Origin: an uncultured delta proteobacterium
GTDB taxonomy: Bacteria; Desulfobacterota; Binatia; UBA9968
Assembly (NCBI GenBank): GCA_963727625.1
Contig: CAVSHR010000004.1
Span: 1,582,780-1,646,779 of the forward strand
Direction of reading: 5' to 3'
DNA: 64,000 bases
Part shown: positions 32,468 to 55,933 of the stretch, in pieces
How positions within the stretch are numbered: position 1 is the stretch's first letter
Layout of the letters: every line of letters begins with the position of its first letter
Position numbers and translations under genes: made by a program
The notes under the pieces: model-generated
Database searches by the model: none
Told to the model about the DNA's origin: nothing
The model's input: the letters and a program-made list of their open reading frames with translations, nothing else

Positions 32468-32742
32468 ATGAGTTCCGTATCGATACTGGAGCAGTAGACA
32501 AAGTCATCCGCCTCCGACACCGTTAAGTTCTAGCCAAGTGTGCGCTCCCGCCGGAATCTTATTGTACCGAGTCATGATCTGACGGATTCATTTTGGTGAA
32601 GGAAAGAAACGCGTTGCCGACTTCAACTGTCTCTTAAAATCCGTAAAGTGCTGCCGGGACAATGGTGATTCGAAGCGGAAGCAAGTCGAGAACAATGAGA
32701 CAATCGCACATCATGGCGACGTCGCCCGCCGAACGAATTCGT

Positions 32743-32755
32743 TGACACTGTGTCA
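32743..32755. promoter_or_regulatory. Palindromic operator overlapping a TTGACA -35 box
   Basis: TGACAC-T-GTGTCA just upstream of the GAF-sigma54 activator. Confidence 0.4.
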
Positions 32756-32777
32756 GCGATTATGTAAGGCAACGGTA

Positions 32778-34343
32778 ATGCAATCGAGCAATGCAAACAA
32801 TCTGGAGGAATCCGCCAACAGCGCCAGCCGAGAACACCTACAAAAACTTCGCACCGTGATTAACATCTGCCGGCGCATGAGCGCGATGACCGATCTGGCG
32901 TCGCTCCAAGCCCTGATCATCCGCGATGCCAAGAAACTCTTGCAGGCGGAAAGGGTCAGCGTTTTCCTTTTTGACCGCGAGAATTGCGAACTTTGGTCGG
33001 CGATTTCCCAGGAAGGCAAGATCATGCGCTTCGACGCCCGGCTCGGTATCGCCGGCGCCGTCGCCATGTCGGGTCAGCCAATCAATGTCGCGGATGCCTA
33101 CGAGCATCCGCTGTTTTATAAAGAAGTCGACATTGAAACCGGCTACCGTACCCGTACGCTTCTCGCCGTGCCGCTGCATAGCCTCGATGGCGCGGTGATC
33201 GGCGTCGGTGAAGCGAGCAACAAAGTCAACGGCGTTTTTACCGATCAAGATGCCGAAATTTTGGCTACCGTGGCGGCACAGCTCGCCGACATTATTGAAA
33301 ACTCGCCCATTGCAACGGAGCTGAAAGCGCAAAAACCCAAACCCAACCGCTACCCGGCGGCCCAAATCATTAACGGCTTTTCGACGCAATACATCGTCGG
33401 CATGAGTGATCGCATTCAATCGATCATCAGGCTTATCGACCAAATCCGGCCGAGCTCAGTGGATGTCCTGATTCAAGGCGAAAGCGGCACCGGCAAAGAG
33501 TTGATCGCCAAAGCCTTGCATTCCAACAGTCGGCGCGCAAAGCAGCCTTTTGTCGCGGTGAACTGCGCTGCCCTGCCGGACAACCTCGTCGAGACCGAGC
33601 TCTTCGGCATCGAAAAAGGGGTTGCGACCGGCGTCGATCGGCGCCTCGGCAAATTTGAGACCGCGCAGGGCGGCACCCTATTCCTCGACGAGATCGGCGA
33701 TCTTAGCCTTTCAACTCAAGCAAAAATCCTGCGCGTATTGCAAGAGCGCTCGATTGACCGCGTTGGCGGCCGCAATCCGGTGCCGATCGACGTGCGCATC
33801 ATCGCCGCGACCAATCGTGACTTGGAATTCTGCATGCGCGATAAGCAATTCCGCGACGATTTGTACTACCGGTTGAGCGTAGTGCGTATCCAAACTCCGG
33901 CATTGCGCGATATTGCTGAGGATATTCCGATACTCGCCAACTATTTTTTGCACAAACAGTGCGCCGCCATGGCCGTCGAACCCAAGCACTTCGCACCCGA
34001 AGCGATGGATCGCTTGGCGCGTTACGATTGGCCGGGAAACGCCCGGCAGCTGGAAAACGAAGTTAAACGCCTGCTGGCCTCCGTGCGGGAAAAGACGATC
34101 ATGGAAGATCACTTAGCGATCAAGCCTAATCGGGAAATCGCCGTAGAGCCGGAAGCCCCTCGGTCTTCGGCCGAGGAATCGCTCCACGATACCGTCGAGG
34201 CGCTCGAGCGGCGGATGATTCAAGACGCTTTAATTGCCTGCGGCGGCAACAAGCTCAAGACGGCGCAGCGTCTCGGTCTGAGCCGGCAGGGCCTGTTTAA
34301 AAAGCTCAAGAAACTCGGCGTGCCCACACGTGAATTAAAATGA
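32778..34343 (+). CDS. Sigma54 activator with N-terminal PDE/CyaB-type GAF domain
   Basis: GAF: GIAG..INVADAY..F..EVD..TGYRT..LAVPL..NK..FT..D; AAA: GESGTGKE, GVATGV, FLDEIG, WPGNARQL; Fis-type HTH. Confidence 0.9.
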   Translation: MQSSNANNLEESANSASREHLQKLRTVINICRRMSAMTDLASLQALIIRDAKKLLQAERVSVFLFDRENCELWSAISQEGKIMRFDARLGIAGAVAMSGQPINVADAYEHPLFYKEVDIETGYRTRTLLAVPLHSLDGAVIGVGEASNKVNGVFTDQDAEILATVAAQLADIIENSPIATELKAQKPKPNRYPAAQIINGFSTQYIVGMSDRIQSIIRLIDQIRPSSVDVLIQGESGTGKELIAKALHSNSRRAKQPFVAVNCAALPDNLVETELFGIEKGVATGVDRRLGKFETAQGGTLFLDEIGDLSLSTQAKILRVLQERSIDRVGGRNPVPIDVRIIAATNRDLEFCMRDKQFRDDLYYRLSVVRIQTPALRDIAEDIPILANYFLHKQCAAMAVEPKHFAPEAMDRLARYDWPGNARQLENEVKRLLASVREKTIMEDHLAIKPNREIAVEPEAPRSSAEESLHDTVEALERRMIQDALIACGGNKLKTAQRLGLSRQGLFKKLKKLGVPTRELK

Positions 34344-36545: not shown

Positions 36546-39500
36546 CTATGTCAGCGCGATATCGGCGATGCGCTGCTCACGATCCGTAACCATCCGCGCC
36601 AAGATCGCCGAATAGTTCTTTAACAGCCGTGCGATCCCGGCAGAATCGAATAGATCAGTCTTGTAGTTGACAGCTCCCGTCAACTTCGCTGACAGCTCGC
36701 GTAAATGAAAGTTGACATCCAGCCGCGAAATCCCGATGCCGGGGTCACTTAAGCGGTTGTTGTCGTTCCAAGAAGCAATTGTAAGACCATTCACCTGCTT
36801 ACTCGCTGTCGATTGGTTTCGGTAATTAAGCATTACCTGATAGAGCGGCGCGCTGGTTTTTTTCCGCCGCCTTTCAAGCAGCGTTTCGAGATATTCGAAG
36901 GGCAACTCTTGATGGGCATACGCGGCGATACAGCACTCCCGCACGGCCCGAATTAACTCGGCAAACGTCATCTTCCCCTCAACCGCCGTGCGCAGCACCA
37001 GCGCGTTGACGAAGTAGCCGATCAGCCCTTCGGTTCCAGCGAGCCCTCGGTTAGCCGATAGCGTGCCGATCGAAATGTCCTTTTGCCCCGTGTAATGATG
37101 GATGAGAGCGCTCAGGGCCGCGACGAAGATCATGAAAGGCGTGCAGTTCTGCTCGCGGGCGAATGACTTTACCCGGCTGAATAGTTCGGCGTCAAACTCC
37201 ACCGGCCGCCGCGAGCTATGGTAACGCGGAGGGGTTTTGCTCTTGCTCCGGCGAAATTCGAGCGCGGGACCGAGCCCGTCGAGCTGCTTTTTCCAGTAGG
37301 AAATCTGCGGCTCGAAATGCCCTTTGCTGAGCGACGCCCTCTGCCAGCGCGCAAAGTCGGAATGTTGGATCTCCGGCTCGGGCAAAGGCGACGGTCGGTC
37401 TTTTGAGAACGCGTCGTAAAGCGCGGTCAGTTCGCGGCGAAACACTCCCATCGACCACTGGTCCGTAATCAGGTGATGCATGGTCAATAGTAAGACATGC
37501 CGCTCGGCGGCGAGGCGAACCAGCTTGACTCTTATGAGCGGCGGCTCCTCCACGTCGAAGCTTTGTGTCGCATCCTGCTTTGAGATCCGCTCCAGTGTAA
37601 GGTCTCGCTCCGCCGCCGGTAGCCGTGTCAAATCGATGAGAGGAAACTTCACCCGTAGCCTTTGACGAATGAATTGCCTGGCTCCGTTTTCGGTCTCTCT
37701 AAAGCCCGTGCGCAGCGCGGCATGGCGTCCAACGATCTCGGCGAGCACTCGCTGTAATGCCGGCAGGTTTAAAGAACCGCTGAGCCGATAGGCGTAGGGC
37801 ATGTTGAGGAAATCGCCGCCGCCGAACAATTGACTAAAGAGAAATAGCGGCTCCTGGCTCAAGGACAACGGCAGCCCGCCCCGCCGCGGCGCCGGTTTGA
37901 TCGGCAATAGCTCCACACCGTCGCCGTTGTGAAACATTTTTTCCACCGTCGCCGCGAAACCGGCCACCGTGGGCGCTTCGAAGAGATCGCGCACCGGCAC
38001 CGGCCGGCCCAGGGCGTCGCGCAGCCTGGCCGCGACTTCGGCGGCCAACAGCGAATGGCCGCCAAGCTCGAAAAAATTATCGTGAACGCCGATCGCCTCG
38101 ACCCCTAAGACTTTCTCCCATACCTGTGCCACAAGGCCTTCTAATTCCGTGCGCCGCTTGGAAAGAGTAGCGGCGGCGATCGGCGCAGCGGGCGCCGGCA
38201 ACGCGCCCCGATCGATTTTGCCATTGGGCAACAGCGGCAGGGCATCGAGAAAGACGAAACCTGCTGGAAGCATAAAATCCGGCAATCGCTCTTTCAGAAA
38301 AGTTCGGAGCTCGCGTGCAGCCGGCGGGCATTCGCGTGCCACGACATAGGCAACGATGAATGGCTCAGATTTTGGATTATCGGATTTCCGTCGCTTCCCT
38401 AAATGCACAACCACGGAGCATTCGCGCACATCTGGATGTCGGCTGAGAGCGAATTCGACTTCGCCGAGCTCGACCCGGCAACCGCGGATCTTGACCTGCT
38501 GATCGAGACGGCCCAAAAACTCGATGTTGCCGTCGGCACAGTAGCGCGCCAGGTCGCCGGTGCGATACAGGCGCACACCGGCCCTTGCGGGAAAAGGATC
38601 GGCGATGAACCGATTCGCGGTCAACTCCGGACGAGCGTGATAGCCGCGCGCGAGATTTTCGCCGCCGACGTAGAGTTCGCCGCGCACCCCCACGGGCACC
38701 GGCTGCATCTGATCGTCGAGGAGATAAATCTGCGTATTATCGATGGGCCGGCCGATCGGAACCGCAGCATCGCAATGGTCATCGCCGACTTCGTAATAAG
38801 TCGCGTCCCCGGCCACCTCGGAAGAGCCGTACAGATTGATCAACCGGCAAAAGGGCAAGCTCTCACAAAACTTCCGAGCGATTTCAGTCGACAGCGTTTC
38901 GCCGCTGCTGAAACAATAGTTAAGAGCACGCAATTGCTTCGGCGCATCGCGGCAGTGTTCGAGCATTTCTTTCAAGAATGATGGAACCAACACCAGCCGT
39001 GTTACCCCGCACTCGGATAAATAATTGACGAAAAGCTGGGGATCTTTCGCGGCTGAATCGGGAACGATCGCCGTCGGGACGCCCTGCAGCAAGGCACCGA
39101 AGATCTCCCAAACCGAATCAACAAAGCTCAGCGAAGTCTTTTGGCAGCTCTTTTCGCCCGTGCCGAACGGGTAGCGCCGCCACATCCAGGCGAAACGATT
39201 GAGCACACCGCGATGGGGTGCGACAACACCCTTCGGTGTCCCCGTCGAACCTGAGGTGTAGATGACACACATGGCGTTTTCGGCGCGAGCCTGTTTCTTG
39301 AGATTGGCCGCGGCGCCGGACCGGTCGCGCAGCAACTGCTCGATCGACACTTTTTTACCGATGAAATCTGCAATTCGACCGGCGTATTTTTCCTGGGTCA
39401 ACAAAACTGCAGCTCGGCTGTCGGCCAACATGAACCTGAGACGCTCTTCCGGGTAAGCCGGATCCAACGGCAGATAGGCGCCGCCGGCCTTGAGAATCGC

Positions 39501-41300
39501 CAACAACGCGACAACCGTTTCCATGGACCGATCAGCCATCACGCCGACGAGCTGTTCGGCAGCCACGCCGAGGGTTCGAAGCTCGCGGGCCAATCGGTTC
39601 GCCCGGGAGTTAAGCTCCCGATAGGTCAATTTCTCGCCAGCGCATTCCAGCGCGACTCGCTCCGGCGTGCGCACCGCCTGGGCTTCGAATAGTTCATGGA
39701 TACACGAGTCTTTGGGAAATTCCGCCGCCCCGTCGTTCCACTCGACGAGCAACTGCGCGCGCTCCGCTTCCGAGAGCAGCGGCAACGCGGCAATCGAGCG
39801 CTCAGGATCGGCGACGATACCCTCGAGCAAAGTTTGGAAATGGCCCGTCACCCGTTCGATCGTCGCGCGCTCGAAGAGCTCGGTCGAGTATTCGACAAAG
39901 CCGATTAACCGGCGGCGCCGCTCGCGCAGGTAAAGCGACAAGTCGAACTGCGCCGTTCCGCTGTCGATCTCACACGAGTGCAATGTCAAGCCGGCCGGCT
40001 GGATTGACCGGACCGGGGTATTCTGCAAAACGAACATGACCTGAAACAGCGGCTGGCGGTTGAGCTCGCGCCGCGGCGCCAACTCTTGCACCAACATTTC
40101 GAAGGGCACCGCCTGATGCGCGAAGGCGCCGAGACAAACTTCGCGCGCGCGGCCGAGCAACCGGCGAAAGCTCGGCGCGCCGGTCAAATCCAGGCGCAAC
40201 GCCAGGGTGTTGACGAACAGGCCGACAACGCCTTCAAGCACGCTCGCCTTCCGGTCGGCCGCCGGCGCGCCGACGACGACATCGTCTTGCCCGGAGTAGC
40301 GGCTGAGCAGCACCTGAAACGCCGCGAGCAGCGTCATGAACAGAGTCGCGCCCTCGCGCCGGCTCAGCTCGTTGAGCCTCACGGTCAATGCTTCGCTCAG
40401 AGCAAATTCGATTTTTGCCCCGGCAAAACTCGGCGTCATCGGACGCGGACGGTCCGTGGGCAGGTCGAGCAGCGGCGCCTCGGTCAGCCGTTCGCGCCAA
40501 TAGTCGAGCTGAGGTTTGAGCCCGTCATCCTGCAACCGGGCGCACTGCCAAGCGGCGTAATCGCGATAACGGCAGGTAAGCTCGGGGAGCCGCGGTGTCT
40601 GAGTGGAACAAAAATTTTCGTAGAGCGTCCAGAGCTCGCGCGTGAGGACGCCCATCGACCAAGCGTCAACGACCAGGTGGTGGGTTAAAAGCGCTAGGAT
40701 ATGCTCTGCGTCGCCGAGACGGAGCAAACGGATGCGCAGCAACCGGCCGTCACTAAGAGCGAAAGGTTCTTGCACGGCTTCGCGAATCAGACGCGCCGCT
40801 TCGACTTCCCGAGCGGCCTTTGCAAGCGGCCGGAGATCCACTGGGTGGAGCGACAATGCCGTAAACGGCTGAACCCTCTGAAACGGCCGTCCGTCGACGG
40901 CGCTGAACTCCGTGCGCAGTGCTTCGTGGCGCCGCGCGAGTTCATTGATACCGGACTGCAATGCGGCAGGACGGAACGGCCCAAGAATGCGCGTTGCCCG
41001 GCAAAGATTGAACACCCCGCAACCCGGCGCCAATTGCTCCAGGAACCACAATCGCTCCTGAGCGAACGACAAGGGCGCGGGCTGATCGTCGGCGAGCCGA
41101 GGAATCGACGGCTCGCCGCCATTGGATTCGGCATTGCAATTGTTCAGTAGCGAGAGGATGACGTCTTTTTGTTCGGCAATCTGGCCGCGAAGCTCGGCAG
41201 TGAGCCGGCCCTTGGGCGCATTGACCCGCAGCCGCTCGCCGTCGGCAACGAGCCGCACATCGAGTGCCTGGAGCCGGTCCATCAATTCGCTGGCGTTTAT
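36546..41300 (-). CDS. NRPS 2: TubC-N docking domain-C-A-T-C(terminal)
   Basis: LRVNAPKG..L (TubC_N-like), HHLVVDAWS, YTSGSTGTPKG, LGGHSL, HHLITDQWS; start ATA 41300, TTG 41285 or ATG 41282. Confidence 0.93.
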   Translation of the reverse strand: MNASELMDRLQALDVRLVADGERLRVNAPKGRLTAELRGQIAEQKDVILSLLNNCNAESNGGEPSIPRLADDQPAPLSFAQERLWFLEQLAPGCGVFNLCRATRILGPFRPAALQSGINELARRHEALRTEFSAVDGRPFQRVQPFTALSLHPVDLRPLAKAAREVEAARLIREAVQEPFALSDGRLLRIRLLRLGDAEHILALLTHHLVVDAWSMGVLTRELWTLYENFCSTQTPRLPELTCRYRDYAAWQCARLQDDGLKPQLDYWRERLTEAPLLDLPTDRPRPMTPSFAGAKIEFALSEALTVRLNELSRREGATLFMTLLAAFQVLLSRYSGQDDVVVGAPAADRKASVLEGVVGLFVNTLALRLDLTGAPSFRRLLGRAREVCLGAFAHQAVPFEMLVQELAPRRELNRQPLFQVMFVLQNTPVRSIQPAGLTLHSCEIDSGTAQFDLSLYLRERRRRLIGFVEYSTELFERATIERVTGHFQTLLEGIVADPERSIAALPLLSEAERAQLLVEWNDGAAEFPKDSCIHELFEAQAVRTPERVALECAGEKLTYRELNSRANRLARELRTLGVAAEQLVGVMADRSMETVVALLAILKAGGAYLPLDPAYPEERLRFMLADSRAAVLLTQEKYAGRIADFIGKKVSIEQLLRDRSGAAANLKKQARAENAMCVIYTSGSTGTPKGVVAPHRGVLNRFAWMWRRYPFGTGEKSCQKTSLSFVDSVWEIFGALLQGVPTAIVPDSAAKDPQLFVNYLSECGVTRLVLVPSFLKEMLEHCRDAPKQLRALNYCFSSGETLSTEIARKFCESLPFCRLINLYGSSEVAGDATYYEVGDDHCDAAVPIGRPIDNTQIYLLDDQMQPVPVGVRGELYVGGENLARGYHARPELTANRFIADPFPARAGVRLYRTGDLARYCADGNIEFLGRLDQQVKIRGCRVELGEVEFALSRHPDVRECSVVVHLGKRRKSDNPKSEPFIVAYVVARECPPAARELRTFLKERLPDFMLPAGFVFLDALPLLPNGKIDRGALPAPAAPIAAATLSKRRTELEGLVAQVWEKVLGVEAIGVHDNFFELGGHSLLAAEVAARLRDALGRPVPVRDLFEAPTVAGFAATVEKMFHNGDGVELLPIKPAPRRGGLPLSLSQEPLFLFSQLFGGGDFLNMPYAYRLSGSLNLPALQRVLAEIVGRHAALRTGFRETENGARQFIRQRLRVKFPLIDLTRLPAAERDLTLERISKQDATQSFDVEEPPLIRVKLVRLAAERHVLLLTMHHLITDQWSMGVFRRELTALYDAFSKDRPSPLPEPEIQHSDFARWQRASLSKGHFEPQISYWKKQLDGLGPALEFRRSKSKTPPRYHSSRRPVEFDAELFSRVKSFAREQNCTPFMIFVAALSALIHHYTGQKDISIGTLSANRGLAGTEGLIGYFVNALVLRTAVEGKMTFAELIRAVRECCIAAYAHQELPFEYLETLLERRRKKTSAPLYQVMLNYRNQSTASKQVNGLTIASWNDNNRLSDPGIGISRLDVNFHLRELSAKLTGAVNYKTDLFDSAGIARLLKNYSAILARMVTDREQRIADIALT

Positions 41301-44300
41301 AACTCGATCTCCTCGCGTTGTTGGCTACGCGCAAATTCAACCCCGCCCCCCGAACTTTCAATGCACCGGCAAATCCCCGCCACCGTGGGCGCTTTTAGAA
41401 AGGCGCGCAAATCCAACTCGACACCGAAAGTTTCGCGGATGCGAGCCGCCGCTTGCGCGGCGAGAAGCGAGTGGCCGCCGAGCTCGAAAAAATGCTCGTT
41501 TCGACCGACGCGCTCGAGATGCAAAAGTGCCGCGAGAATCTTGCCGACGGTTGCTTCGGGCGCGCTTAGCGGCTGTTCGTACGAACGATCCGGTGCGGGT
41601 TCGAGCGGCGGCCGCTTCGCCAACGCGACGTAGTCGATTTTTCCGCTAGGATTCAACGGCAAGCGCTCCAAGATAGAAATGTGCGCAGGTATCATATAAT
41701 GGGGCAGTTGCGCGCTTAGGAAGCGGCGCAACTTCTCGGCGTCCACGGCAGAGCTATTGCCACATGCAACGTATGCAATCAGCTGCGCATCTTCGGGCGC
41801 CGCGCCGGCACGAACGACCAGCGCCGCGCCGCGCACGCCGGGATGACGTTGCAGCGCCGTTTCCACTTCAGCGAGTTCGACGCGAAAACCGCGGATACTG
41901 GCGCGCCGCTCCTTTCGACCCACCCACTCCACCACCCCGTCCGGCTGGTACCGGCCCATCTCACCCGTGCGATACAAACGGTCGCGCTCCCGGCCGGTGA
42001 ACGGATTGACGATGAAATTCGCCGCCGCCAGAGCGCGGTCGTTCAAATAGCCCGCCGCCAGATGGGGACTGCGAATATACAATTCTCCAAGCTCGCCGAT
42101 GCCGGCCAACTGATCGTTCGCGGTTAACAGTAGCAACTGCACATCGCGCGCGCCGCGCCCGGTCGGCACGAATGGGCTCGCATGATTCTTTTCGCTCGCT
42201 GCCGCGTCGACAACGGCATACCCGACCGCGCGCTGAGTTTCGGTGGCGCCGTAGAAACTCGTAATCATCGCTCGCGGAGCAAGCGCGCGCATCGCCGCCG
42301 CATCCCGGCGCGACAAGAGATCGCCGCCGAAAAAAATCCGCCGCAAGGCGGGCAAGGTTTGACCTCGGACCGTTTGCAGGAGCCGTCCCAGCGCCGGAGT
42401 GAGGTGAAGCATCGAAATTTTCCTGCGCCGCAGCCACGGCACCAGCTGCTCGGGATCTTGTAATTCTTCCGCGTGCGGAACGTACAGGGCCGCACCGGTC
42501 GCCAGGGCCGTGAACAGATCCCGATGCAGGTGATTATAGCCGAGACCGGACAGCAGCGCGTAGCGGTCCGATTCTTTGAGGTCGAAGGTTTTCCGTTGCC
42601 AGGGCAAGAAATGAGTCATCGGGCCATGACGGCATAAGACTCCCTTGGGCTCTCCCGTCGAGCCGGAAGTGAAGGCGATATACGCGGGATCGTCGGCGCT
42701 GAGAGGGATAGGCAAAGTCTCCTCCGGCCATTTTCCCAGCTGTTTGGCAATTTCTCTCTTGCCGCGCGGCAGCATCACGCGCAGAAAATTCTTTTTGCCT
42801 TCGACGCACGCAGCAATTTCCGCCGGCAGTTCCCCTGCTCCGGCCATCTGCACCATTCCCTTCGGTGCGGCGATACGTAGGTAGTCGCGCAAACGCGCCG
42901 GCGGATAGGCCGGATCCAGAATGGTGAAAACCGCGCCCGCCTTGAGCACGGCGAGAATGGCCAAGGTGATCGTCGCGTCACGATGCGCGTAGATGGCGAC
43001 CACATCTTGGGGCCGTATCCCGCCGCATACGAGCCTATGGGCCAGCCGGTTGCTCAATTGGTCGAGCTCTCGATAATTCCAGCTTTCTTGATCGTCGGCG
43101 AGGGCGACTTTTTCCGGGCGCAGCGCCGCTTGGCGCTCGACCAGCTCATGAACCGCGCCGAACCAAGTGTCATCGAACCGCTCGCGCGGATCCGGCAGCA
43201 GCGCCTGCGCCGCCGGCGTCAGAAGGGAAAATTGCTCGATTCGCTGCGCCGGGCCGGCGGCGACCTGAGCCAACAGGCTCGCCCATTGCTCCAGCATGGA
43301 TTGCGCGCGTGTCTCGCTAAAGAGATCGGGATTGTAAACCAGCGTAAGCTCGATGCCGTCGTCAAACTCGGGCGCCTGGAAAACCAGATCGAATTTCGCG
43401 CCGGGCGCGGCGCGGCGTAATTTGACCACATCGCAGCCGGGCAATTGAAACTCGCGCTCCGCGATATCCGCCATGTTGAACAGCACCTGGAAAAGCGGGT
43501 TGCGGCCGAGGTCGCGCTCAGGGGCGACCTCCTCGACGACCCGCTCGAAGGGCAAGTCCTGGTATGTGTATGCAGCCAGGCAGACTTCGCGCACGCGCCC
43601 GAGCAGATCGACAACGCTCGGATTGCCGGACAAGTCGACGCGCAACGCCACCGGGTTGATAAAAAATCCGATGATATTTTCAATTTCCGGCCGATTGCGC
43701 CCGGCAAGGGTCGAGCCGACGACGATATCTTCCTGTCCCGACAAGCGCGACAGCAAAATTTGTAACGCCGTTAAGAGCGTCATAAACAAGGTCACGTTCT
43801 CAGTCCGGCTCAATTTTTTAAGCGCGTTGCTGAGCTCGGCCGACAATCGATGGGTCAGCTTCACGCCCCGATAGTTCGGCGCGTCAGCGCGTGCGTAGTC
43901 GCGAGGCAGGTCAATGGAGCGCAAGCCGGCGAGTTGGCGCTTCCAGTAACCCGTTTCCGTTGCCAGCTCGCCTTCGCGCAGAGATTGAACTTGCCACCAA
44001 GCAAAATCGCCGTACTGCAACGCGAGCGGCGCGAGAGAAATCTCCCGCCTGGCGAGCAGCGCTTCGTAGCGCCCGGCCAGCTCCCGAAAAAACAGCGCCA
44101 GCGAGCTGCCATCGCAGACGATATGATGAATATTCAACAACAGCACATGCTCGTCACCGGCCAAGCGGAGAACTTTGGCGCGCAGCAGCGGCGCACGCTG
44201 AAGCTCGAAGGGCTGCTCGGCATCTTCAGCAGCATAGCGGGCAATTTCCCGTTCCGTTTGCTTCCTTGGGAAACTACTCAAATCAACGACCGGCACGGCC

Positions 44301-47300
44301 AATCGCACCGCCGGCAGGATTTCTTGCGCTGGCTCGCCGCCGATCTCGACAATCGCGCTGCGCAGCGCCGCGTGGCGCTGAATAATCCCATTGAGCGCCG
44401 CTTGGAATGCCGCAAAATCGAAAGACCCCTTGACGCGATAGGCCGAAGGCATGTTGTATGCGGTTAAATCACCCTCGAGCTGATGCAAAAACCAAAGCCG
44501 CCGCTGGGCGAACGAAAGCGGCGCCCGCCGCTGATCCGGCGCCGCAACGATCGGGGCGATCGCCACGCCGCTGCGCTCGCGGCGCAAGGCTTCGACATGC
44601 CGCGCCAAGCCGGCGACGGTCGGCAGCTCGAACAGCTTACGCAAAGCCAATTCGACGCGCAGCTTCGCCCGCAGGCGCGACGCCACCCGCGTGGCCAGCA
44701 GCGAATGGCCGCCGAGGTCGAAGAAATTGTCGAATATGCCGACTCTCTCGATACCGAGCACTTCACGCCAGATTTGCGCGATCCACTCTTGGGTTTCCGT
44801 GCGCGGCGCGAGGAACTCTGCGGTCGACCGAACATTGCGGAAATTCAGCCGCGGCAGCGCCAAGCGATCCACTTTGCCGTTGGGCGTGAGCGGCAGTGCG
44901 TCGACCGGCAGGAAGACCGACGGCAACATGAACTCCGGCAATTTTTGCCGCAGCCAGTCGCGCAGCTCGGAAGCGGCAGGCAGCGCCCGCGAGTTGCCCA
45001 CGATGTATGCGACAAGCTGCCGATCTGATTTTGGATTTTGGATTTTCGCCTTTGGATTAGAAGGCAACTTCGGCTCAGCAGCAGAAACCTCACGCACAGC
45101 GGCGACGCATTGGCGAATCGCCGGATGCTCGGCAAACGCCGCCTCGAGTTCGCCGAGCTCGATGCGATAGCCGCGGATCTTTACCTGGTTGTCGGCGCGG
45201 CCGAGATACTCGATATTGCCGTTGGCAAAGTAGCGCGCCAGATCGCCGGTGCGGTACATGCGCGCGCCGCGCTTCTTGGCGAAAGGATCACGGAGAAATC
45301 TCTCCGCGGTCAACTCCGGCCGGCGCAGGTAGCCGCGCGCCACACCGGCGCCGCCGATATAAAGCTCGCCGGGCACGCCCACCGGAACGGGTTGCAGCGC
45401 CGCGTCGAGCAAATAAATTTTCGTGTTGGCGATGGGCCGGCCGATGGTGGCCTTGCCATCGGCGCGGCGCAAGGTAAAAGTCGAATAGGTGGTGGTTTCC
45501 GACGGCCCATAGAGGTCGTAAACTTTCTCGACCCGTCCCGTGGCGTAGAGCCGGCGCACTAGATCCGGCTTCAACGGTTCGCCCGCCAGGTTGACCGTCC
45601 GCACCGAGCGCGGCAAAGCGCCGGCGTCGAGCAATTCGGCGATGGCCGAGGGAACGGTGTTGATCAGCGTGACATCTTCGCGGTCGATCAAATCGGCGGC
45701 CCCGAGCGCGTCTCGGACTAAAATCACCTTGCCGCCTCGGCTCAGAGGCGCAAATAATTCGAAGACCGACAAATCGAAACAGATCGAAGTCGACGCCAAA
45801 ACGCCGGCGAGCCCGGCCGGTGAAAACACCCGACGGGCCCACTGCAAGAAAGCCGCCGCGTTGCGATGCTCGATCGCCGCGCCCTTGGGCCTTCCCGTGG
45901 AGCCGGAAGTGTAAATGACGTAGGCGAGATTGCGCGCGGCTGCGGTTTTGCCAAGGTTTTTCGCCGATTCTTTTTCGATCGCGGGCCCATCCCGGTCGAC
46001 ACAAACGACTTGCATATCGAGCTCTGCCGCCAGAGGTGCGATTGTGTGAGAGCGCTTGTCCGCGGCAAACTTCTGCTGGGTGAGCAGCAAGTCAGCGCGG
46101 GCATCGTCGACCATGAACACAATGCGCTGGCGCGGATAGTGCGGATCCAGCGGCAGGTAGGCACCGCCGGATTTGAGGATCGCCAGCAATGCGATCACCA
46201 TTTCCGGCGACCGTTCCAGGCGGACACCGACCAGCTTTTCCGGGCCGATGCCGCGTTTTCGTAAATAGCGCGCCAAGCGATTGGCCCGGCCATTGAGCTC
46301 CCGGTAAGTCAGCTGCCTGCCGGCGCACTCCAGCGCCACGGCATCGGGCGCGCGCCTGACTTGGGCTTCGAATAATTCATGAACACAGCGATTGCGCGCC
46401 ATCGCCGTATCGGTCCGGTTCCAATCGACAAGAATTTGCCGGCGCTCGGCGGCCTCGAGCAACGGCAAATCCGCGATGCTCCGGTCCGGATCGGCAGCGC
46501 TGCCGCGCAGTAAACAAACCAAATGGCGCGCCAATCCTGCGATCGTCGAACGGTCGAACAGATCGCTGCTATACTCTATAAAGCCGCTTAAGTCCCCGGC
46601 CTCCTCGGTCAGCGAAAGCGTCAGATCGAACTTTGACGTGCACGACTCCAGGTCCAAGGCATCAACCTTGAGTCCGGGAAAGTCGACATTCGCAGCGGGA
46701 TAATTCTGACAGGCAAACATCACTTGAAACAACGGATTGCGGCTTAAGTCGCGCTCGCGCTGCAGCTCTTCAACCAACCGGTCGAAGGGCAGCCCTTGAT
46801 GCGCCAGCGCGCCACGGCAATGCCCGCGCACCTGTTTGAGCAGTTGGCGAAAAGTCGGTCGTCCCGACAGGTCCGTCCGCAACACCAGCGTATTGACGAA
46901 ACATCCAATGAGGTTTTGCCTGTCGCGCGCATTGCGATTGGCCGCGGGAAAACCGACCGAGATGTCATCTTGACCGCTGTAGCGCCAGAGCAGCACGTTA
47001 AACGCCGCCATCAGCACCATGAACATCGTCGCGCGCGCTTCGGCGCCGACGCCTCGCAGTTTGCCGGCCAGCGATGCGTTAATGGTCAGCGGCAATCGAC
47101 CGCCGCGAAAGCTTTGCAGCGCCGGCCGCGGCCGATCGGTCGCCAGAGCAATAGCGGATAGATTGTTTTCCAGCCGCTTCTTCCAGTAGGCCAAATCGTC
47201 CTGGAGTGAGCAATGTTCCAACTGCGCCCGCTCCTGCGCCGCGTAGTCGCGGTATTGAATCTGGATCTCAGGCAGCGCCGGCGCCTTGTCGCTGACAAGG

Positions 47301-49795
47301 GAGCGATACGAAAGCGCCAGCTCGCGCAGCAACAGATTCATTGACCAGCCGTCGCACACCAGCTGGTGCAAAACCAAAAGCAGAACATGATGTTTGTCGG
47401 CAAGTTTGATCAAATCCGCGCGCAAGAGCGGGGCGCGCTCGAGCGCGAACGGCGCCGCGGTTTTTTCCGCAAGCCGGCGGGATAGCTCAGCGCGCTTCAC
47501 AGCCGGCGCCAGCTCGGTTAAATCGACGAGTTCCAGCGTCAACTCGAGCGCAGGCGCAACCACTTGAGCTGGCCTGTCGTCGACGCAGGAAAACACCGTG
47601 CGGAGAATTTCGTGCCTCTCGATAAGTGCATTCATCGCCTGGTTCAGGGCATCGCAATCCAAACGGCCCTGCAGCCGCAGCGCGCGGGAAATATGGTAAA
47701 CCGAACTTTGTGGTTCGAGCTGGTGAAGAAACCAAAGGCGCTCTTGGGAGATTGACAAAGGCGCCGCCTGAGCGCCCTTGGGCGCTTCAACCGAGCCATG
47801 AGTTGGAAGCTCGATTCCCTGCGCTTCAAGCAACGTGGCTAGAAGCTTGTGCCGGGCGTTAGCCATCACTTGAGCGCCCCCGTCTTTTCTTAAAACCTTT
47901 TCAACCTCGTTGTCGGACATCGATTCGATTTGCAAATAAGCGGTCGCGATCTTTTCCGCCTGACCGGGTTTGGCTTCATGCACGAGAATGAATTTTGCCA
48001 AGGCCGCGATGGACGGCCCCTGCGCCAGCGTAACCAACGGCTCGGTAAGCGGAAAGAGTTCTTGGACGCGCGCGAGGATTTGCGCGGCCTGAAGCGAATC
48101 GCCGCCAAGCTCGATAAAATCTTCGTCAACGGCGAGAAATTCAAGATTCAAGGCATCGCGCCAAAATTCCAATAGCAGCTTTTCGAGCCCGTTCCTCGGC
48201 ACGACCGAACGATCGCCCGGCTTGCTGGGCGTTTTTTTAAACCCCGGCAAGGCGCGCCGGTCGATCTTGCCGCCGGCGCTGACCGGCAAGCGGTCCAGAA
48301 CCACGAACCGCGCGGGCACCATGTATGCGGGCAGACGCGTTATAAGTTGCGCGCGCCAGCCGGTGCTCCGAACCGCGCGCTTTCGCTTAGGGACCACGTA
48401 GGCGATCAACCGGTTGCCATTCGCGCCGTCGTATTCGCTCACGACGACCGCTTGCTTGACCGACGGGATATCGTGCAAGGCAGCCTCCACCGCACTCGGC
48501 TCCACCCGGTGTCCCCTGATCTTGGCTTGAAAATCCTTGCGGCCGACATGAACCAGGCAGCCGTCCGAAAGCCTATAGCCGAGATCGCCGGTGCGGTAGG
48601 TGCGCAAGTTTCTCCTCGCGGGCTCGGCGAGAAATTTGGCGCGGGTCAATTCGGGCTGGCGCCAATATCCCAGCGCGAGATAGGGGCTGCGCACGGCGAT
48701 CTCGCCCACCGCCCGCGGGCCGAGGGGTTCACCCCTCTCATCGAGAATCAGCACCTCGTTGCCGTCCAACGGATAACCGACCGGCACTCGTTCTTCATCG
48801 ATCTCGCTTTGCTTGTCGAGAAAAAAATAGGAAACCGCCTGGGTTTCGCTGATGCTGTAGCGGTTGACGAACAAACAATCGTCGCGAAAGCAGCGCTTAT
48901 AGGATTCCACGTCGGCCTTGAAGACCGGTTCGCCGCCGATATGGATCAGCCGGACGCTGGGAAAACTATCGCTGCCGGTCACGACCCGCACCGCGTGGCG
49001 AAACACGGTCGCCACGCAGCTGAACACGCTGATCTCCCCATCGCGAAGCCACCCTGGCAGGGAAGCCAGGCCGGCTTCGTCGATATCGAGGGTGAGCAAC
49101 GCCGCGCCGTTGAGCAGTGCGAGAAACATATCCCGCGCCGCACCGACGTTGTTGGCGCGCAGCAGACTGATGCGATCCTCGGCCGCGATATGCAAGGCAT
49201 TGGTTTTCGTGCGAATGCCGAAAAGCTCGTGGCGGTGATTCCACACCACGCCTTTGGGCTCGCCGGTGGTGCCGGACGTAAAGTTAATATAAGCGATCGA
49301 CTCCGGCGAAAGCGCGAGAGTGGGATTTGACGATAGGTTGCCTCGCAGCAGCTCGATGTTGATCGAGCGTACGCCGGTGGCGGTCAAGGCCTTGGCAGCA
49401 CCGCGAGATTTCTCGTCGGTGAGCAGGAAGCGGGCTTCGAGATTGGCCAAAATCTCTACGATTTTATTTTTTGGCAACCGCCGATCCAGCGGCACAAAGG
49501 CTTTGCCGGCCTTAAGCACTCCCAGGGCGGCGATCGTCGTCGACAGGCCTGCGCCGCAAAGCAGCGCTACCGGCTCATGCCCAGCGCCGGCTCGGTCGAG
49601 CAGTGCGTAGGCGAGTCGATTGGCCGCGCGGTTAAGCTCGTCGTAACTCAGCGCTGTTCCTTGGCTTTTAATCGCGAGCCGGTTCGGGTAGCGGCGCGCC
49701 TGGTGCTCGAACCGCTCGGACAGAGTCTGCAAGGTGTCTTGGAGGCGAAATTCGTTAAACCGGTTGGTGGGACGCGCTGCTGGGCTCGAGCTCAT
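41297..49795 (-). CDS. NRPS 1: A-T-C-A-T-C-A-T
   Basis: Three TSG(T/S)TG.PKG A domains, T motifs GGDSL/GGHSL/GGHSL, C motifs HQLVCDG and HHIVCDG, C-terminal REEIEL docking motif. Confidence 0.95.
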   Translation of the reverse strand: MSSSPAARPTNRFNEFRLQDTLQTLSERFEHQARRYPNRLAIKSQGTALSYDELNRAANRLAYALLDRAGAGHEPVALLCGAGLSTTIAALGVLKAGKAFVPLDRRLPKNKIVEILANLEARFLLTDEKSRGAAKALTATGVRSINIELLRGNLSSNPTLALSPESIAYINFTSGTTGEPKGVVWNHRHELFGIRTKTNALHIAAEDRISLLRANNVGAARDMFLALLNGAALLTLDIDEAGLASLPGWLRDGEISVFSCVATVFRHAVRVVTGSDSFPSVRLIHIGGEPVFKADVESYKRCFRDDCLFVNRYSISETQAVSYFFLDKQSEIDEERVPVGYPLDGNEVLILDERGEPLGPRAVGEIAVRSPYLALGYWRQPELTRAKFLAEPARRNLRTYRTGDLGYRLSDGCLVHVGRKDFQAKIRGHRVEPSAVEAALHDIPSVKQAVVVSEYDGANGNRLIAYVVPKRKRAVRSTGWRAQLITRLPAYMVPARFVVLDRLPVSAGGKIDRRALPGFKKTPSKPGDRSVVPRNGLEKLLLEFWRDALNLEFLAVDEDFIELGGDSLQAAQILARVQELFPLTEPLVTLAQGPSIAALAKFILVHEAKPGQAEKIATAYLQIESMSDNEVEKVLRKDGGAQVMANARHKLLATLLEAQGIELPTHGSVEAPKGAQAAPLSISQERLWFLHQLEPQSSVYHISRALRLQGRLDCDALNQAMNALIERHEILRTVFSCVDDRPAQVVAPALELTLELVDLTELAPAVKRAELSRRLAEKTAAPFALERAPLLRADLIKLADKHHVLLLVLHQLVCDGWSMNLLLRELALSYRSLVSDKAPALPEIQIQYRDYAAQERAQLEHCSLQDDLAYWKKRLENNLSAIALATDRPRPALQSFRGGRLPLTINASLAGKLRGVGAEARATMFMVLMAAFNVLLWRYSGQDDISVGFPAANRNARDRQNLIGCFVNTLVLRTDLSGRPTFRQLLKQVRGHCRGALAHQGLPFDRLVEELQRERDLSRNPLFQVMFACQNYPAANVDFPGLKVDALDLESCTSKFDLTLSLTEEAGDLSGFIEYSSDLFDRSTIAGLARHLVCLLRGSAADPDRSIADLPLLEAAERRQILVDWNRTDTAMARNRCVHELFEAQVRRAPDAVALECAGRQLTYRELNGRANRLARYLRKRGIGPEKLVGVRLERSPEMVIALLAILKSGGAYLPLDPHYPRQRIVFMVDDARADLLLTQQKFAADKRSHTIAPLAAELDMQVVCVDRDGPAIEKESAKNLGKTAAARNLAYVIYTSGSTGRPKGAAIEHRNAAAFLQWARRVFSPAGLAGVLASTSICFDLSVFELFAPLSRGGKVILVRDALGAADLIDREDVTLINTVPSAIAELLDAGALPRSVRTVNLAGEPLKPDLVRRLYATGRVEKVYDLYGPSETTTYSTFTLRRADGKATIGRPIANTKIYLLDAALQPVPVGVPGELYIGGAGVARGYLRRPELTAERFLRDPFAKKRGARMYRTGDLARYFANGNIEYLGRADNQVKIRGYRIELGELEAAFAEHPAIRQCVAAVREVSAAEPKLPSNPKAKIQNPKSDRQLVAYIVGNSRALPAASELRDWLRQKLPEFMLPSVFLPVDALPLTPNGKVDRLALPRLNFRNVRSTAEFLAPRTETQEWIAQIWREVLGIERVGIFDNFFDLGGHSLLATRVASRLRAKLRVELALRKLFELPTVAGLARHVEALRRERSGVAIAPIVAAPDQRRAPLSFAQRRLWFLHQLEGDLTAYNMPSAYRVKGSFDFAAFQAALNGIIQRHAALRSAIVEIGGEPAQEILPAVRLAVPVVDLSSFPRKQTEREIARYAAEDAEQPFELQRAPLLRAKVLRLAGDEHVLLLNIHHIVCDGSSLALFFRELAGRYEALLARREISLAPLALQYGDFAWWQVQSLREGELATETGYWKRQLAGLRSIDLPRDYARADAPNYRGVKLTHRLSAELSNALKKLSRTENVTLFMTLLTALQILLSRLSGQEDIVVGSTLAGRNRPEIENIIGFFINPVALRVDLSGNPSVVDLLGRVREVCLAAYTYQDLPFERVVEEVAPERDLGRNPLFQVLFNMADIAEREFQLPGCDVVKLRRAAPGAKFDLVFQAPEFDDGIELTLVYNPDLFSETRAQSMLEQWASLLAQVAAGPAQRIEQFSLLTPAAQALLPDPRERFDDTWFGAVHELVERQAALRPEKVALADDQESWNYRELDQLSNRLAHRLVCGGIRPQDVVAIYAHRDATITLAILAVLKAGAVFTILDPAYPPARLRDYLRIAAPKGMVQMAGAGELPAEIAACVEGKKNFLRVMLPRGKREIAKQLGKWPEETLPIPLSADDPAYIAFTSGSTGEPKGVLCRHGPMTHFLPWQRKTFDLKESDRYALLSGLGYNHLHRDLFTALATGAALYVPHAEELQDPEQLVPWLRRRKISMLHLTPALGRLLQTVRGQTLPALRRIFFGGDLLSRRDAAAMRALAPRAMITSFYGATETQRAVGYAVVDAAASEKNHASPFVPTGRGARDVQLLLLTANDQLAGIGELGELYIRSPHLAAGYLNDRALAAANFIVNPFTGRERDRLYRTGEMGRYQPDGVVEWVGRKERRASIRGFRVELAEVETALQRHPGVRGAALVVRAGAAPEDAQLIAYVACGNSSAVDAEKLRRFLSAQLPHYMIPAHISILERLPLNPSGKIDYVALAKRPPLEPAPDRSYEQPLSAPEATVGKILAALLHLERVGRNEHFFELGGHSLLAAQAAARIRETFGVELDLRAFLKAPTVAGICRCIESSGGGVEFARSQQREEIEL

Positions 49796-53523: not shown

Positions 53524-55776
53524 TCAAAACGTTAATCGCTTGTACAATTGCGGCAGGCGGCGCGGCAGCAAACTCACGTCGGCCAGGACTTCATAGCTGA
53601 AGTCGTCCATCATCGTGCGCAGATAATCGTTGCCCTCCTTGTCGACGGTCAGGCAGAACGGATGCAGCCCCTCGCGCCGCGCTTCGATGAGCGCCATGCG
53701 CGTGTCCTGCACGGCGTAGGCTTTCTCGGAATCTTCCTGAGAATAACCGCGGTCCTGCGGCCGCCCATCGCTGATCAGGAACAAAAACTTCGCGCGGGTA
53801 TGTTCCTGTCTTAGCTTCGCCGTGACATGGCGGATTGCCGGCCCCATGCGAGTGGCGTGCAACGGGCTGATCCGGCCGAAACGCTTGGCGATCTCCAGAT
53901 TAAAATCTTCGGCGATGTCTTTGATGACGTAAAATTCCACGTTGTCGCGGCCGTGGCCGGAAAAACCGTAGACCCCGTATCGGTCGCCGATACTTTCCAG
54001 AGCATCCATCATCAGCACGATCGCTTCCTTCTCGACGTCGATGATGCGCCGCTGGGTGCGCTCGCGCGGCGGCGCATCATCGGTCGCCGGCTCCGCCGCG
54101 GTGCCCCCGGCGATCGCTTCCCCGGTGGAGCCGCTCATGTCGAGCAAAAACGCCACCGCCACATCGCGCTCGATTTTATGGTGCCGCCAAAAGACTTTCT
54201 CGGACGGGCTGATGCCGATGCGCAAATCTGTAATCGCTTCGATGGCAGCGTCCAGGTCATGGTCGACGCCGTCCGGCAATCGCTTTTCCTTGCGATAGAT
54301 CTCCGGCATGACTTGCTCGAACTCGCCGCGGATCTGCTTGAGCAGGTCGCCATGGTTCAGCAAGGTATCGCGATAGAATTGGATGTCACCCGCCGGCATG
54401 ATTTTTTCATAGACTTTGCACCAGCGCTCGCGAAAGCGATTCGCGAAAACATCCCACTCGTCATAAAGAAAGGTATTCGGCTGGTTCGCCGACAGCGGCC
54501 CCATATCGTCGTCCGCTTGCTGTGACGGGCGGCGCTGGATGCTGCGCATGCGCGGGTCGCGCCGTTCGAGCTCACGCATTAAATTTTGCACCATTCTCTC
54601 GGTTTGCGGATCTGCCTCTTCGCCGTCCTCATCCGAATCTCTGGGGGTCGGTTCTCTCTGGCTGCGCAGCAAATCGGCCAGCTCCTCGGGCGTCAATGAC
54701 TTCCGCTGCTCACGGGAATTTGCCTTGGCTTGAGTCAACAGCTGGGCCAGCTCCGGCCGAAATTCTCCACGATAGTCCACCCCAGGCGGCGATAGGTACT
54801 CGCGCTCCCGACCGACCAGTGCCGGTAGCTTCAGGTTTACCTGCGACGAATCATCATCCACCCAACGATTGGAACGACTGGAACCACTGGAACGTTTGGA
54901 ACCTATCTGTCGACTTGAACTATTTGAACGTCTTGAACGACTTGAACCCTCTTCCTCCGGTTGTAAAACCGCAAACTCGTTCTTTTCCAAATAGTCGTTT
55001 CTAACCCGGGCCAAACGGGCATAAATTCTTAGCGCCGCTTCTGCGGCGTCCTCGACGGTCGCGCCGCGCTGAAACACCAGCCTCGCCAATCGGTTTATTT
55101 CTCCGGCGAGCCTTAGCCGCCGCCGGGGAATTTTAAGATCGCCTATTTGACCGAGACTCAGTCGAACCAACAGCTCGAGCAACGCTTCCCGCACGGGCAA
55201 CAATGTGATTTCCGGCCGCAAAGTAAGCACACGCCGGCGCATGGCGCGATACACCGGCGCAATGCCGCGGTATTCCTTCATGACCCGGAATTCGACCCGG
55301 CCGCTTTCGAGCACGGAAAAAATATCCAACGCCAAGCGCTTGTTAGGAAATAGTCTGAAGAACCGCGTCAGCTCGGTTGCCGTCGGACGCTCATGGTGGC
55401 CTTCGTGGCCATGATCATGGTCGTGATACTCCGGCGGCGCGGTCAAGCTGAGACGCAGGTCATCGAACCTCGTCGATGGCCGCGCGTATTCAAACTCGAA
55501 GCTGCCGAATTCGATATGGCCGGCCTGCTGCGTCAGCGCGATTTTCAAGAAATCGTAATTGTCGCCTTGCGTTCCAAAACGCTCGACGACCGACGGAAGA
55601 AAAATCGCCGCGCCGTCGCTGGTCGCCGCGTCGCTCTTCGACCAGCCAATGTTTTTATCGACGAGCTGTCCGAGATCTTGCAGCTCCACGCTGCGCTCGG
55701 TCAGCGCGTGGCAGTAGAGCCGCAGCATGTCGCGCAGGGGCGCGATTTCAACAGCAGAGGATTCGGAAATCGACAT
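53524..55776 (-). CDS. NorD/CbbO-like VWA domain protein
   Basis: YDEWD, LDMSGST MIDAS, TRMGPAIRH, SDGRPQD. Confidence 0.87.
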   Translation of the reverse strand: MSISESSAVEIAPLRDMLRLYCHALTERSVELQDLGQLVDKNIGWSKSDAATSDGAAIFLPSVVERFGTQGDNYDFLKIALTQQAGHIEFGSFEFEYARPSTRFDDLRLSLTAPPEYHDHDHGHEGHHERPTATELTRFFRLFPNKRLALDIFSVLESGRVEFRVMKEYRGIAPVYRAMRRRVLTLRPEITLLPVREALLELLVRLSLGQIGDLKIPRRRLRLAGEINRLARLVFQRGATVEDAAEAALRIYARLARVRNDYLEKNEFAVLQPEEEGSSRSRRSNSSSRQIGSKRSSGSSRSNRWVDDDSSQVNLKLPALVGREREYLSPPGVDYRGEFRPELAQLLTQAKANSREQRKSLTPEELADLLRSQREPTPRDSDEDGEEADPQTERMVQNLMRELERRDPRMRSIQRRPSQQADDDMGPLSANQPNTFLYDEWDVFANRFRERWCKVYEKIMPAGDIQFYRDTLLNHGDLLKQIRGEFEQVMPEIYRKEKRLPDGVDHDLDAAIEAITDLRIGISPSEKVFWRHHKIERDVAVAFLLDMSGSTGEAIAGGTAAEPATDDAPPRERTQRRIIDVEKEAIVLMMDALESIGDRYGVYGFSGHGRDNVEFYVIKDIAEDFNLEIAKRFGRISPLHATRMGPAIRHVTAKLRQEHTRAKFLFLISDGRPQDRGYSQEDSEKAYAVQDTRMALIEARREGLHPFCLTVDKEGNDYLRTMMDDFSYEVLADVSLLPRRLPQLYKRLTF
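54864..54948. repeat. Degenerate 9-bp tandem repeat in frame within the VWA gene
   Basis: About nine AACGA(C/T)T(G/T)G-like units encoding SSRSRRSNSSSRQIGSKRSSGSSRSNR. Confidence 0.75.
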
Positions 55777-55927: not shown

Positions 55928-55933
55928 ACCTTC

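Follow-up and report, generated by a model that had tools for sequence, protein, structure and literature searches.

SidE, the fumarylalanine synthetase of Aspergillus fumigatus, has the architecture A-T-C-A-T-C (A, adenylation domain; T, carrier domain; C, condensation domain) and ends in a terminal C domain. Ebony couples a beta-alanyl group held on its T domain to amines by means of an amine-selecting domain that is not a C domain. In pyoverdine biosynthesis the acyl cap is removed by a periplasmic hydrolase after export, and the enzyme concerned, PvdQ, is an Ntn hydrolase and not an S33 enzyme. SidE is a nonribosomal peptide synthetase (NRPS) described as joining a dicarboxylic acid to L-Ala (PMC6737921). 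The rhabdopeptide and xenortide NRPSs are described as using a terminal C domain in place of a thioesterase (TE) and as bearing a C-terminal amine such as phenylethylamine on their products (bioRxiv 10.1101/349555). PvdL, of the pyoverdine pathway, is reported to begin with a non-amino-acid starter and to continue with an acidic residue joined by its side-chain carboxyl, the Glu of an internal module being coupled through its gamma-carboxy group (PMC6206403). Here we describe an NRPS gene cluster in a 64,000-nt stretch of DNA, hereafter the window, from an uncultured delta proteobacterium (contig CAVSHR010000004.1 of assembly GCA_963727625.1, forward-strand positions 1,582,780 to 1,646,779; genome 6.6 Mb), and compare it with these systems. 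Coordinates are those of the window unless a contig or another locus is named.

On balance we favour, with modest confidence, the reading that five genes (for a STAND regulator, two NRPSs, an exported hydrolase and a sigma-54 activator) form a functional cluster that would build the chain X-Ala-Y-beta-Ala, release it through the terminal C domain (C4) onto a nucleophile and export the product, probably a small acidic pseudo-peptide. A1-T1 would load X, a carboxylic acid not recognised through an alpha-ammonium group, which probably carries a second anionic group because the A1 pocket is lined by Arg239, His299 and Arg322; our best guess is a 2-oxo- or dicarboxylic acid (2-oxoglutarate, succinate, fumarate). 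C1 would couple X to L-Ala loaded by A2. A3, with a pocket of Arg239, His278, Phe299, Arg330 and Ala331 and with Asn at 235, would load Y, an aminoadipate- or glutamate-like acidic unit. Y might be activated at its distal carboxyl, with its alpha-amine as the acceptor for C2 and an isopeptide link as in PvdL, or might be a 2-hydroxy analogue joined by an ester, which would give a serine hydrolase an obvious bond to cut. A4 would load beta-Ala. C4, in place of a TE, would pass the chain to a nucleophile supplied from outside the cluster, most likely a free cellular amine, following the logic of the C-terminal (C_term) domains of the rhabdopeptide synthetases. Export of the product would follow, perhaps with trimming by the S33 hydrolase in the periplasm.

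Each likeness has its limits. PvdL starts with a fatty acid loaded by an acyl-ligase-type module, unlike A1, and its A domain matches A3 at 186 bits, no closer than other A domains do. SidE is fungal and has two modules, unlike this line; the likeness is one of product and architecture, and fumarate is one candidate for A1. C4 is only 25-26% identical to Photorhabdus C domains, which may or may not be of the C_term type. Fungal Lys2 is the best family for A3; unlike Lys2, A3 has no reductase and lies inside an elongation module, between C2 and C3. The 2-keto-acid A domains of the Ak/KAL type (CrpD-M2, Dol15D-M2) are described as hydrophobic at position 235 (PMC13643306), as is A1 with its Val; those modules carry a ketoreductase (KR) domain and act in elongation, whereas A1 is a loader with a cationic pocket and no KR. 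The NRPS family to which the locus belongs is uncharacterised and widespread; it is not a new kind of system. The product would be a small acidic peptide from uncultured soil-type bacteria.

Two synthetases and release of the chain

Both NRPS genes lie on the minus strand. The first (P0001, 2832 aa; 41297..49795) reads A1-T1-C1-A2-T2-C2-A3-T3, with a fused docking linker between T1 and C1, and the second (P0002, 1579 aa; 36546..41285, its true start likely being the ATG at 41282) reads TubC_N docking domain-C3-A4-T4-C4. The Pfam matches in P0001 are three AMP-binding/AMP-binding_C, three PP-binding and two Condensation domains; those in P0002 are TubC_N, two Condensation domains, one A and one T domain. 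As in modular (type I) NRPSs, core motifs A3, A5, A7, A8 and A10 were located in the four AMP-binding plus AMP-binding_C pairs, and there are four GG[DH]SL carrier serine sites across the two proteins; the genome holds two PF01648 (phosphopantetheinyl transferase) matches. The module order of the original prediction is recovered from Pfam and motif positions in these ORFs, and every motif that it quoted is present in their translations: ANNVGAARD (P0001 residues 214-222, window 49130-49156), LSGLGYNHLHRDLF (P0001 residues 2415-2428, window 42512-42553), YGATETQRAVGY (P0001 residues 2515-2526, window 42218-42253), KTSLSFVDSVW (P0002 residues 716-726, window 39108-39140) and HHLITDQWS (P0002 residues 1270-1278, window 37452-37478). 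Eleven homologues share the architecture of P0002 at 60-76% identity. The pocket codes and motifs are not due to chance, because they are kept in orthologous loci (50-75% identity) and in 120 homologues of A1 and 42 of A3.

C4 (36549..37874) follows the T4 carrier (37947..38132, Pfam residues 1052-1113). It is full-length, its nearest C domains being those of Txo1/Txo2, 5u89 and TycC, and the protein stops where a C-A linker would start. The original prediction put a terminal C domain where a TE would be expected, and this is borne out: C4 is terminal in five of five orthologous loci, with the stop 1-9 aa past the domain, and a Pfam scan found no TE in the cluster, all 13 PF00975 matches in the genome lying outside the window. 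C4 thus resembles bacterial C_term domains in being last in the final module with no A domain after it and no TE. At other related loci, 25 of 34 proteins continue past this C domain, most of them into a C-A linker and an A domain. A TE acting in trans was considered and rejected; those of the 13 matches that could be placed adjoin other NRPS or A-T genes, and none is conserved with the cluster.

Release by hydrolysis to a free acid or by intramolecular cyclisation, with no external amine, is an unlikely alternative, though one with arguments of its own. The Gly of the HHxxxDG motif is Gln in C4 of five of five orthologues and of 10 of 11 other listed homologues (Glu in the remaining one; the terminal C domain at locus L013 has Tyr), and such a bulky residue could close the acceptor carrier tunnel; moreover, no gene for forming or activating an amine is conserved in the cluster. 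Fungal terminal C domains (C_T), which are described as having the motif SHxxxDx, release their chains by cyclisation (PMC10510592). However, C4 reads HHLITDQ and not SHxxxDx, it finds the terminal C domain of TqaA only at E ~4e-6 as against 5.7e-63 for elongation C domains, and cyclisation would require a free nucleophile on X or Y. The acceptor had been suggested to be a lipid or glycan, a suggestion that found no support: the glycosyltransferase genes are at least 16 kb away and are not beside the orthologous clusters. Within the window, genes for glycosyltransferases, a Kdo kinase and a lipid A acyltransferase lie at 1.4-18.7 kb; none is conserved beside the orthologues, and they were rejected as indicators of such an acceptor. 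The DQ-type terminal C domain, together with the exported hydrolase, may define a TE-free route of release and maturation.

The internal C domains differ in the same motif. HHxxxDG is complete in C2 (43196..44527, boundaries approximate; HHIVCDGSS); C3 (39747..41078; HHLVVDAWS), like C4, keeps both His and the Asp, and C1 (46430..47770) reads HQLVCDGWS (47342-47368). The Gln of C1 aligns on the second His of Txo2, the residue of HHxxxDG to which catalysis is usually ascribed. C1 is of the elongation type, matching Txo2 at 2e-94 as against 1.7e-17 for the starter C domain of CDA, and on these values a starter (lipo-initiation) reading of C1 was rejected. The HQ is kept in C1 of four of four orthologous loci and in 38 of the 42 proteins of the A3 clade defined below (HH in three, HF in one), and HQxxxDGWS occurs once in the genome, at C1 of P0001. 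Among 119 other NRPSs from a homologue search, 298 motif-pattern matches were HH and none was HQ at core motif C3 of the C domain; two matches with Q fell in core motif C1 instead. The conserved replacement, which had been overlooked, offers a natural test of the role of the second His. Separately, the second C domain of 12 of the 42 A3-clade proteins (P0256-P0323) reads DHxxLDGWS, with Asp for the first His.

Adenylation domains and their pockets

The columns of the FD-type Asp in A1, A3 and A4 were placed by HMMER alignment to the two A domains of LgrA, and the remaining pocket positions were anchored on core motifs, with positions in GrsA numbering and LgrA as the aligned reference; GrsA itself (1AMU) ranked 9th to 24th among structure matches of the A domains. 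The pocket codes are VGRSHGRAVK for A1, DLFNNALTYK for A2, NHRHFGFRAK for A3 and VDWVFSLGDK for A4, those of A2 and A4 agreeing letter for letter with the ones read earlier by eye. Two readings are alignment-dependent: at position 278 of A3, motif anchoring gives H and the HMM alignment gives L, and at 330/331 of A1 the placing of a single-residue gap decides between A,V and Q,A. At columns 235/236/239 A1 has Val-Gly-Arg, A3 Asn-His-Arg and A4 Val-Asp-Trp, so that three of the four domains are without Asp235. This residue is described as binding the alpha-amino group (PMC11355689) and as present in ~92% of A domains, its variation marking beta-amino acids (bioRxiv 10.64898/2026.06.15.732251). 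With three of four domains outside that ~92%, code-based predictors will misread this widespread family, and the substrates of A1 and A3, once worked out, would add two entries to the specificity code. A search of the literature for the pocket codes as text strings gave no match, although supplements, outside that search, may bear on the assignments; searches by PDB ids 8XJZ ("Peptide synthetase"), 8Z0Q ("Special condensation domain") and 8WWW returned nothing relevant.

A1 (48236..49723, about residues 25-520; motifs A3, A5, A7, A8 and A10 present) is followed by T1 (47966..48178, boundaries approximate; GGDSL, Ser567). The absence of the alpha-amino-binding Asp, claimed beforehand, is confirmed by Val in the FD-Asp column against LgrA. 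A1 scores 303.5 bits against TIGR01733, under the cut-off of 317.4; among solved structures it is nearest to amino-acid A domains, its best 60 matches including neither an aryl-acid nor a fatty-acyl ligase. A length-matched search gave at least 120 homologues at 51-75% identity, and the 120 listed comprise 114 A-T proteins that stand alone (~580-680 aa) and six that have a C domain as well. In these 120 the pocket is almost invariant (P0001 position, with GrsA position in brackets): 217 (235) is V in 117, 218 (236) G in all, 221 (239) R in 118, 259 (278) S or T in 119, 285 (299) H in 119, 287 (301) G in all, 312 (322) R in all and 510 (517) K in all; the loss of Asp235 is fixed in every one. 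The code is also kept in three of three orthologous loaders. At locus L001 the loader (A1-T1) has a gene of its own, with a stop codon overlapping the start of the gene for C1; in P0001 and in P0259 it is fused to the downstream modules. A1 also has R-D and SETQ-AVSY features of the A3 type, which had gone unnoticed.

In keto-acid A domains a hydrophobic residue is reported to replace Asp235, and the V219D change abolished the activity of one of them (PMC13643306). A1 has the hydrophobic residue; the Pfam scan found no KR domain in its module. From Val235 and this keto-acid rule we infer that A1 loads a non-amino acid, and the two Arg and the His of its pocket suggest an anionic side chain; hence the proposal of a 2-oxo- or dicarboxylic acid.

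Paralogues of the A1 loader are many in the genome (34-40% identity; none with Asp235), for example at C2:796404-798893, C5:863018-865582 and C9:508473-510872, and several directly precede TE matches, as stand-alone A-T-TE 'NRPS-like' enzymes of 919-940 aa. A second NRPS locus lies outside the window on the same contig (1531347-1555495, ~27-51 kb before the window start); it holds three loader-like A domains of the A1 family, two MbtH genes, HH-type C domains and a TE, and one of its A-domain pockets reads A3-like (xNRHFGFRGK).

A2 (44846..46372; followed by T2 at 44594..44788, the best Pfam stretch, residues 1670-1734) is by far closest to module 2 of McyA. The C-A-PCP structure of that module (8jbr) scores 553.8 bits and other structures at most 408.8, except LgrA, whose 633.8 bits are the sum of two domains (325.5 + 303.3). 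The McyA2 construct is reported to activate L-Ala, and the module has an epimerisation domain and makes D-Ala (bioRxiv 10.1101/2023.11.13.566838); Pfam finds no such domain here. The predicted specificity of A2 for Ala, proposed from its code, is well supported by this relationship.

A4 (38196..39689) was placed by alignment and motif anchoring. Its shifted V-D motif, with Asp at 236 and none at 235 as in A domains for beta-amino acids, stands in the alignment to both LgrA A domains and is kept in five of five orthologous loci; V-D-W is invariant or nearly so in 12 of 12 homologues of the same architecture (I for V in one). The code varies across the five loci as IDWVFSLGDK, VDWVFSLADK, VDWVTSLADK and VDWVISLADK; the last of these, found at L028, is presumably the textbook beta-Ala code. 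The main texts of the kasichelin and bolagladin papers give no beta-Ala code. A4 is probably of the beta-amino-acid type, with beta-Ala as its predicted substrate.

A3 (41621..43153; followed by T3, GGHSL, at 41360..41554, boundaries approximate) had been likened to the A domain of Lys2 with Asp replaced by Asn, and both points stand. Scanned alone, A3 has fungal Lys2 (TIGR03443) as its best NCBIfam family, at 423.7 bits as against 353.5 for the generic TIGR01733; A2 and A4 score 191.9 and 216.2 bits against TIGR03443, A1 is not listed at E<=1e-40, and Asn occupies the FD-Asp column. Whole P0001 reaches 1004.2 bits over five stretches, under the cut-off of 1030.1, and the Pfam scan found no reductase domain in it. 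A3 is, on this evidence, not a Lys2 orthologue, because the reductase domain is missing, the score is under the cut-off and Asp235 is absent. Its predicted pocket is nevertheless of the Lys2 type, with both Arg, His278, Phe299 and Ala331 retained.

A search with the A3 region gave 119 other NRPSs, and the best-matching A domain of each was grouped. The A3 clade, without Asp235, comprises 42 proteins (47-77% identity to A3) with N, S or G at 235 and then x-R-H-(F/L/S)-(G/A)-(F/R/V)-R-(A/G)-K; one outlier without Asp235 (44%) reads NPRNMVLRAK. Fifty-nine proteins (41-49%) are Lys2-like and keep Asp235, with codes of the form D-P-R-H/N-..., and 17 (32-37%; various codes) are unrelated. In a sample of 20 of the 59, the consensus is LSGLaHDPLqRD and YGSTETQRAVgy, matching the Lys2 motifs that the original prediction had given. 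A3 shares R239, H278, F299, R330, A331, LSGL..RD and TETQRAVGY with this bacterial D-P-R-H clade. It differs from the clade and from Lys2 in having Asn-His for Asp235-Pro236, Glu for the Asp of A7, and altered A8 and A10 motifs. At the A4 core motif, where the sister clade has H-D-P as Lys2 does, A3 reads Y-N-H and its clade Y-N/S-H; the A3 clade further has YRTGE at A7, R-r-v-n for q-Q-V-K at A8 and GKvDY (GKIDY in A3 itself) for GKvDR at A10. By sequence A3 belongs to a derived branch, without Asp235, of a bacterial Lys2-like clade. Its code is identical at L001, L002 and L012, and L003 has S235. Its substrate, once known, would tell whether a pocket of the Lys2 type can function within such a module of an elongating line.

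The absence of Asp235 also bears on the improbable alternative that A1 and A3 activate ordinary alpha-amino acids, for instance acidic ones, in spite of it, and that the line makes a simple tetrapeptide with beta-Ala at its end. Both domains are overall closest to amino-acid A domains, their Arg-rich pockets would suit the side chains of Asp, Glu or aminoadipate, and the sister clade of A3 keeps Asp235 in 59 of the 119 proteins. Set against this, the missing residue is the one credited with binding the alpha-amino group, none of the 120 listed A1 homologues or of the 42 A3-clade proteins has it, and the effect of V219D marks the position as discriminating.

Other findings weigh against the assembly line that we favour, with its unusual starter, its acidic unit and its release by C4. 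C4 looks by sequence like an ordinary elongation C domain (Txo1/Txo2, TycC) and could serve a carrier protein acting in trans, and C1 is without the His usually held to be catalytic. The altered A7 (Asp to Glu), A8 and A10 motifs of A3 could mean a changed or reduced adenylation chemistry. The loss of Asp in A3 is no proof of a substrate other than an alpha-amino acid, because fungal Lys2 presumably keeps Asp235 though it activates a distal carboxyl. The code tables behind the A4 and A3 assignments (beta-Ala and Lys2) are assumed to be right. No exporter or amine-forming enzyme is conserved in the cluster, as judged from the window and the orthologous loci, and the N-terminus of the hydrolase was judged signal-peptide-like by eye only.

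The 42 A3-clade proteins follow one plan: a loader without Asp235, C1, a module for a small residue, C2 and an A3-type domain. Their loader codes are TGQHRGATIK-like, TGxHNGETFK, AGRTYGRTVK or VGRTHGRAVK, and the middle module has a Gly-type code (DILQLGLIWK or one change from it) in 25, a V-D type in 11, an Ala code in three and DLSHLGLIWK in three. L003, otherwise orthologous, has a Gly code there, S235 in A3 and a different loader (39% identity). The varying middle code and the swap at L003 indicate what stays constant: the loader for an acid, condensation by the HQ-type C domain and the A3-type unit. We rate as a long shot the broader view that this is a large family with a fixed core of a non-amino-acid loader, Gly, Ala or beta-Ala, and a Lys2-type acidic unit without Asp235. 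In that view a C domain would work with Gln for its catalytic His, and an elongation module would activate the distal carboxyl of an amino-dicarboxylate to give polyanionic pseudo-peptides, the acyl-(Ala/Gly)-gamma-Glu-like chain mimicking the start of the peptidoglycan stem peptide. C4 would release the chain onto an amine, and maturation beyond the cytoplasm by a new S33-type hydrolase would follow the logic of a pro-drug or a signal.

Neighbouring genes and distribution of the cluster

The hydrolase and the two regulators were not recognised earlier as conserved neighbours. P0003 (49803..53282, minus strand), whose stop lies 7 nt ahead of the NRPS start, encodes a regulator in which Pfam finds a double zinc ribbon, an adenylate/guanylate cyclase domain, a STAND AAA_16 ATPase and TPR repeats. 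At L040, L041 and L042 the loader gene is immediately preceded by a homologue, and L003 has a copy 53% identical.

P0004 (34743..36536, minus strand) begins 10-19 nt past the NRPS stop and encodes a putatively exported, Cys-rich alpha/beta serine hydrolase of the S33 type. Pfam reports Abhydrolase_1 and Hydrolase_4 (S33; 27.1 against a cut-off of 27), and the match to TIGR01250 (proline iminopeptidase) is weak (36.1 against 167.65). GGPG (G100-G103), S176, D497 and H528, the residues expected for an S33 oxyanion hole and triad, are invariant in 40 sequences, as is C73, and the other three of four Cys are conserved in >=90%. The AlphaFold2 model has a mean pLDDT of 87.1, and its top Foldseek matches are tricorn factor F1, prolyl aminopeptidases and Hip1, with query-normalised TM-scores of just 0.26-0.43 because a lid of ~270 residues has no match. 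The family is small, with 311 representatives at E<=0.001 among 1.84 billion, and no homologue was found in 400 other sampled genomes of the same phylum. The protein is 80% identical at L001, and its gene follows the NRPS genes at L001, L002, L003 and L012, that is, after C4 in all four orthologous loci that extend that far.

Convergent with the operon lies a gene (32742..34343, plus strand) for a sigma-54 enhancer-binding protein, GAF-AAA+-HTH_8 by Pfam, which is 86% identical to its neighbour at L001 and 72% to that at L002; ORFs of the same size occur at L012 and L003. Searching for the sigma-54 promoter TGGCAC-N5-TTGCW with at most two mismatches gave 30 matches where 30.5 are expected, none of them before the operon; with a stricter pattern, the regions ahead of the loader genes here and at L040, L041, L042 and L044 gave no match. 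No precursor gene is conserved with the cluster, and MbtH genes lie elsewhere in the genome.

That the line continues beyond C4, with C4 condensing the chain onto an amino acid carried by a separate A-T (or A-T-TE) protein that completes its module, is quite improbable. For this, C4 is elongation-type by sequence, some proteins at other loci (L015, L017, L018, L020) have a C domain followed by no more than a short charged extension, and the genome is rich in stand-alone A-T and A-T-TE paralogues. Against it, C4 stops 1-9 residues past its domain with no docking tail in five of five orthologues, the only A-T gene conserved beside the cluster is the loader, and the internal C domains of related loci have DG, DA or DN in core motif C3 where C4 has the conserved DQ.

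The orthologous clusters lie in metagenome-assembled genomes labelled Chloroflexota, delta proteobacterium and Syntrophobacter, a patchy distribution that suggests spread by horizontal transfer. At L002 (15947-21157) and L012 (15769-19039) a second sigma-54 activator and phage-tail-sheath-like genes follow the cluster; a link to a contractile injection system was considered and rejected, the tail-sheath genes being absent from this window. The NRPS genes of L002 and L012 are split into several ORFs, probably by frameshift errors of assembly and not by real splits.

Beside the conserved activator gene lies a 110-aa ORF (32135-32467, minus strand) whose match to the sigma-54 interaction domain is confined to the final third of that domain; it is probably the remnant of a third activator gene. 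Adjoining the regulator of the cluster is a NorQ/NorD-like pair (53524-56827, minus strand): a CbbQ/NorQ-type AAA ATPase of 297 aa and, after it, a VWA protein of 750 aa whose middle region is long, acidic and rich in Ser and Arg. The envelope glycan/LPS-type block at 1403-18710 contains genes for a P450, a Kdo/WaaP-family kinase, a polysaccharide deacetylase, a lipid A acyltransferase, a PAP2 protein, a sulfotransferase, and four GT2 and two GT4 glycosyltransferases. Near the other end of the window, a DDE transposase gene (DDE_Tnp_1_4; 62314-63831, minus strand) is overlapped antisense by a 581-aa ORF (62212-63957, plus strand) with no family match.

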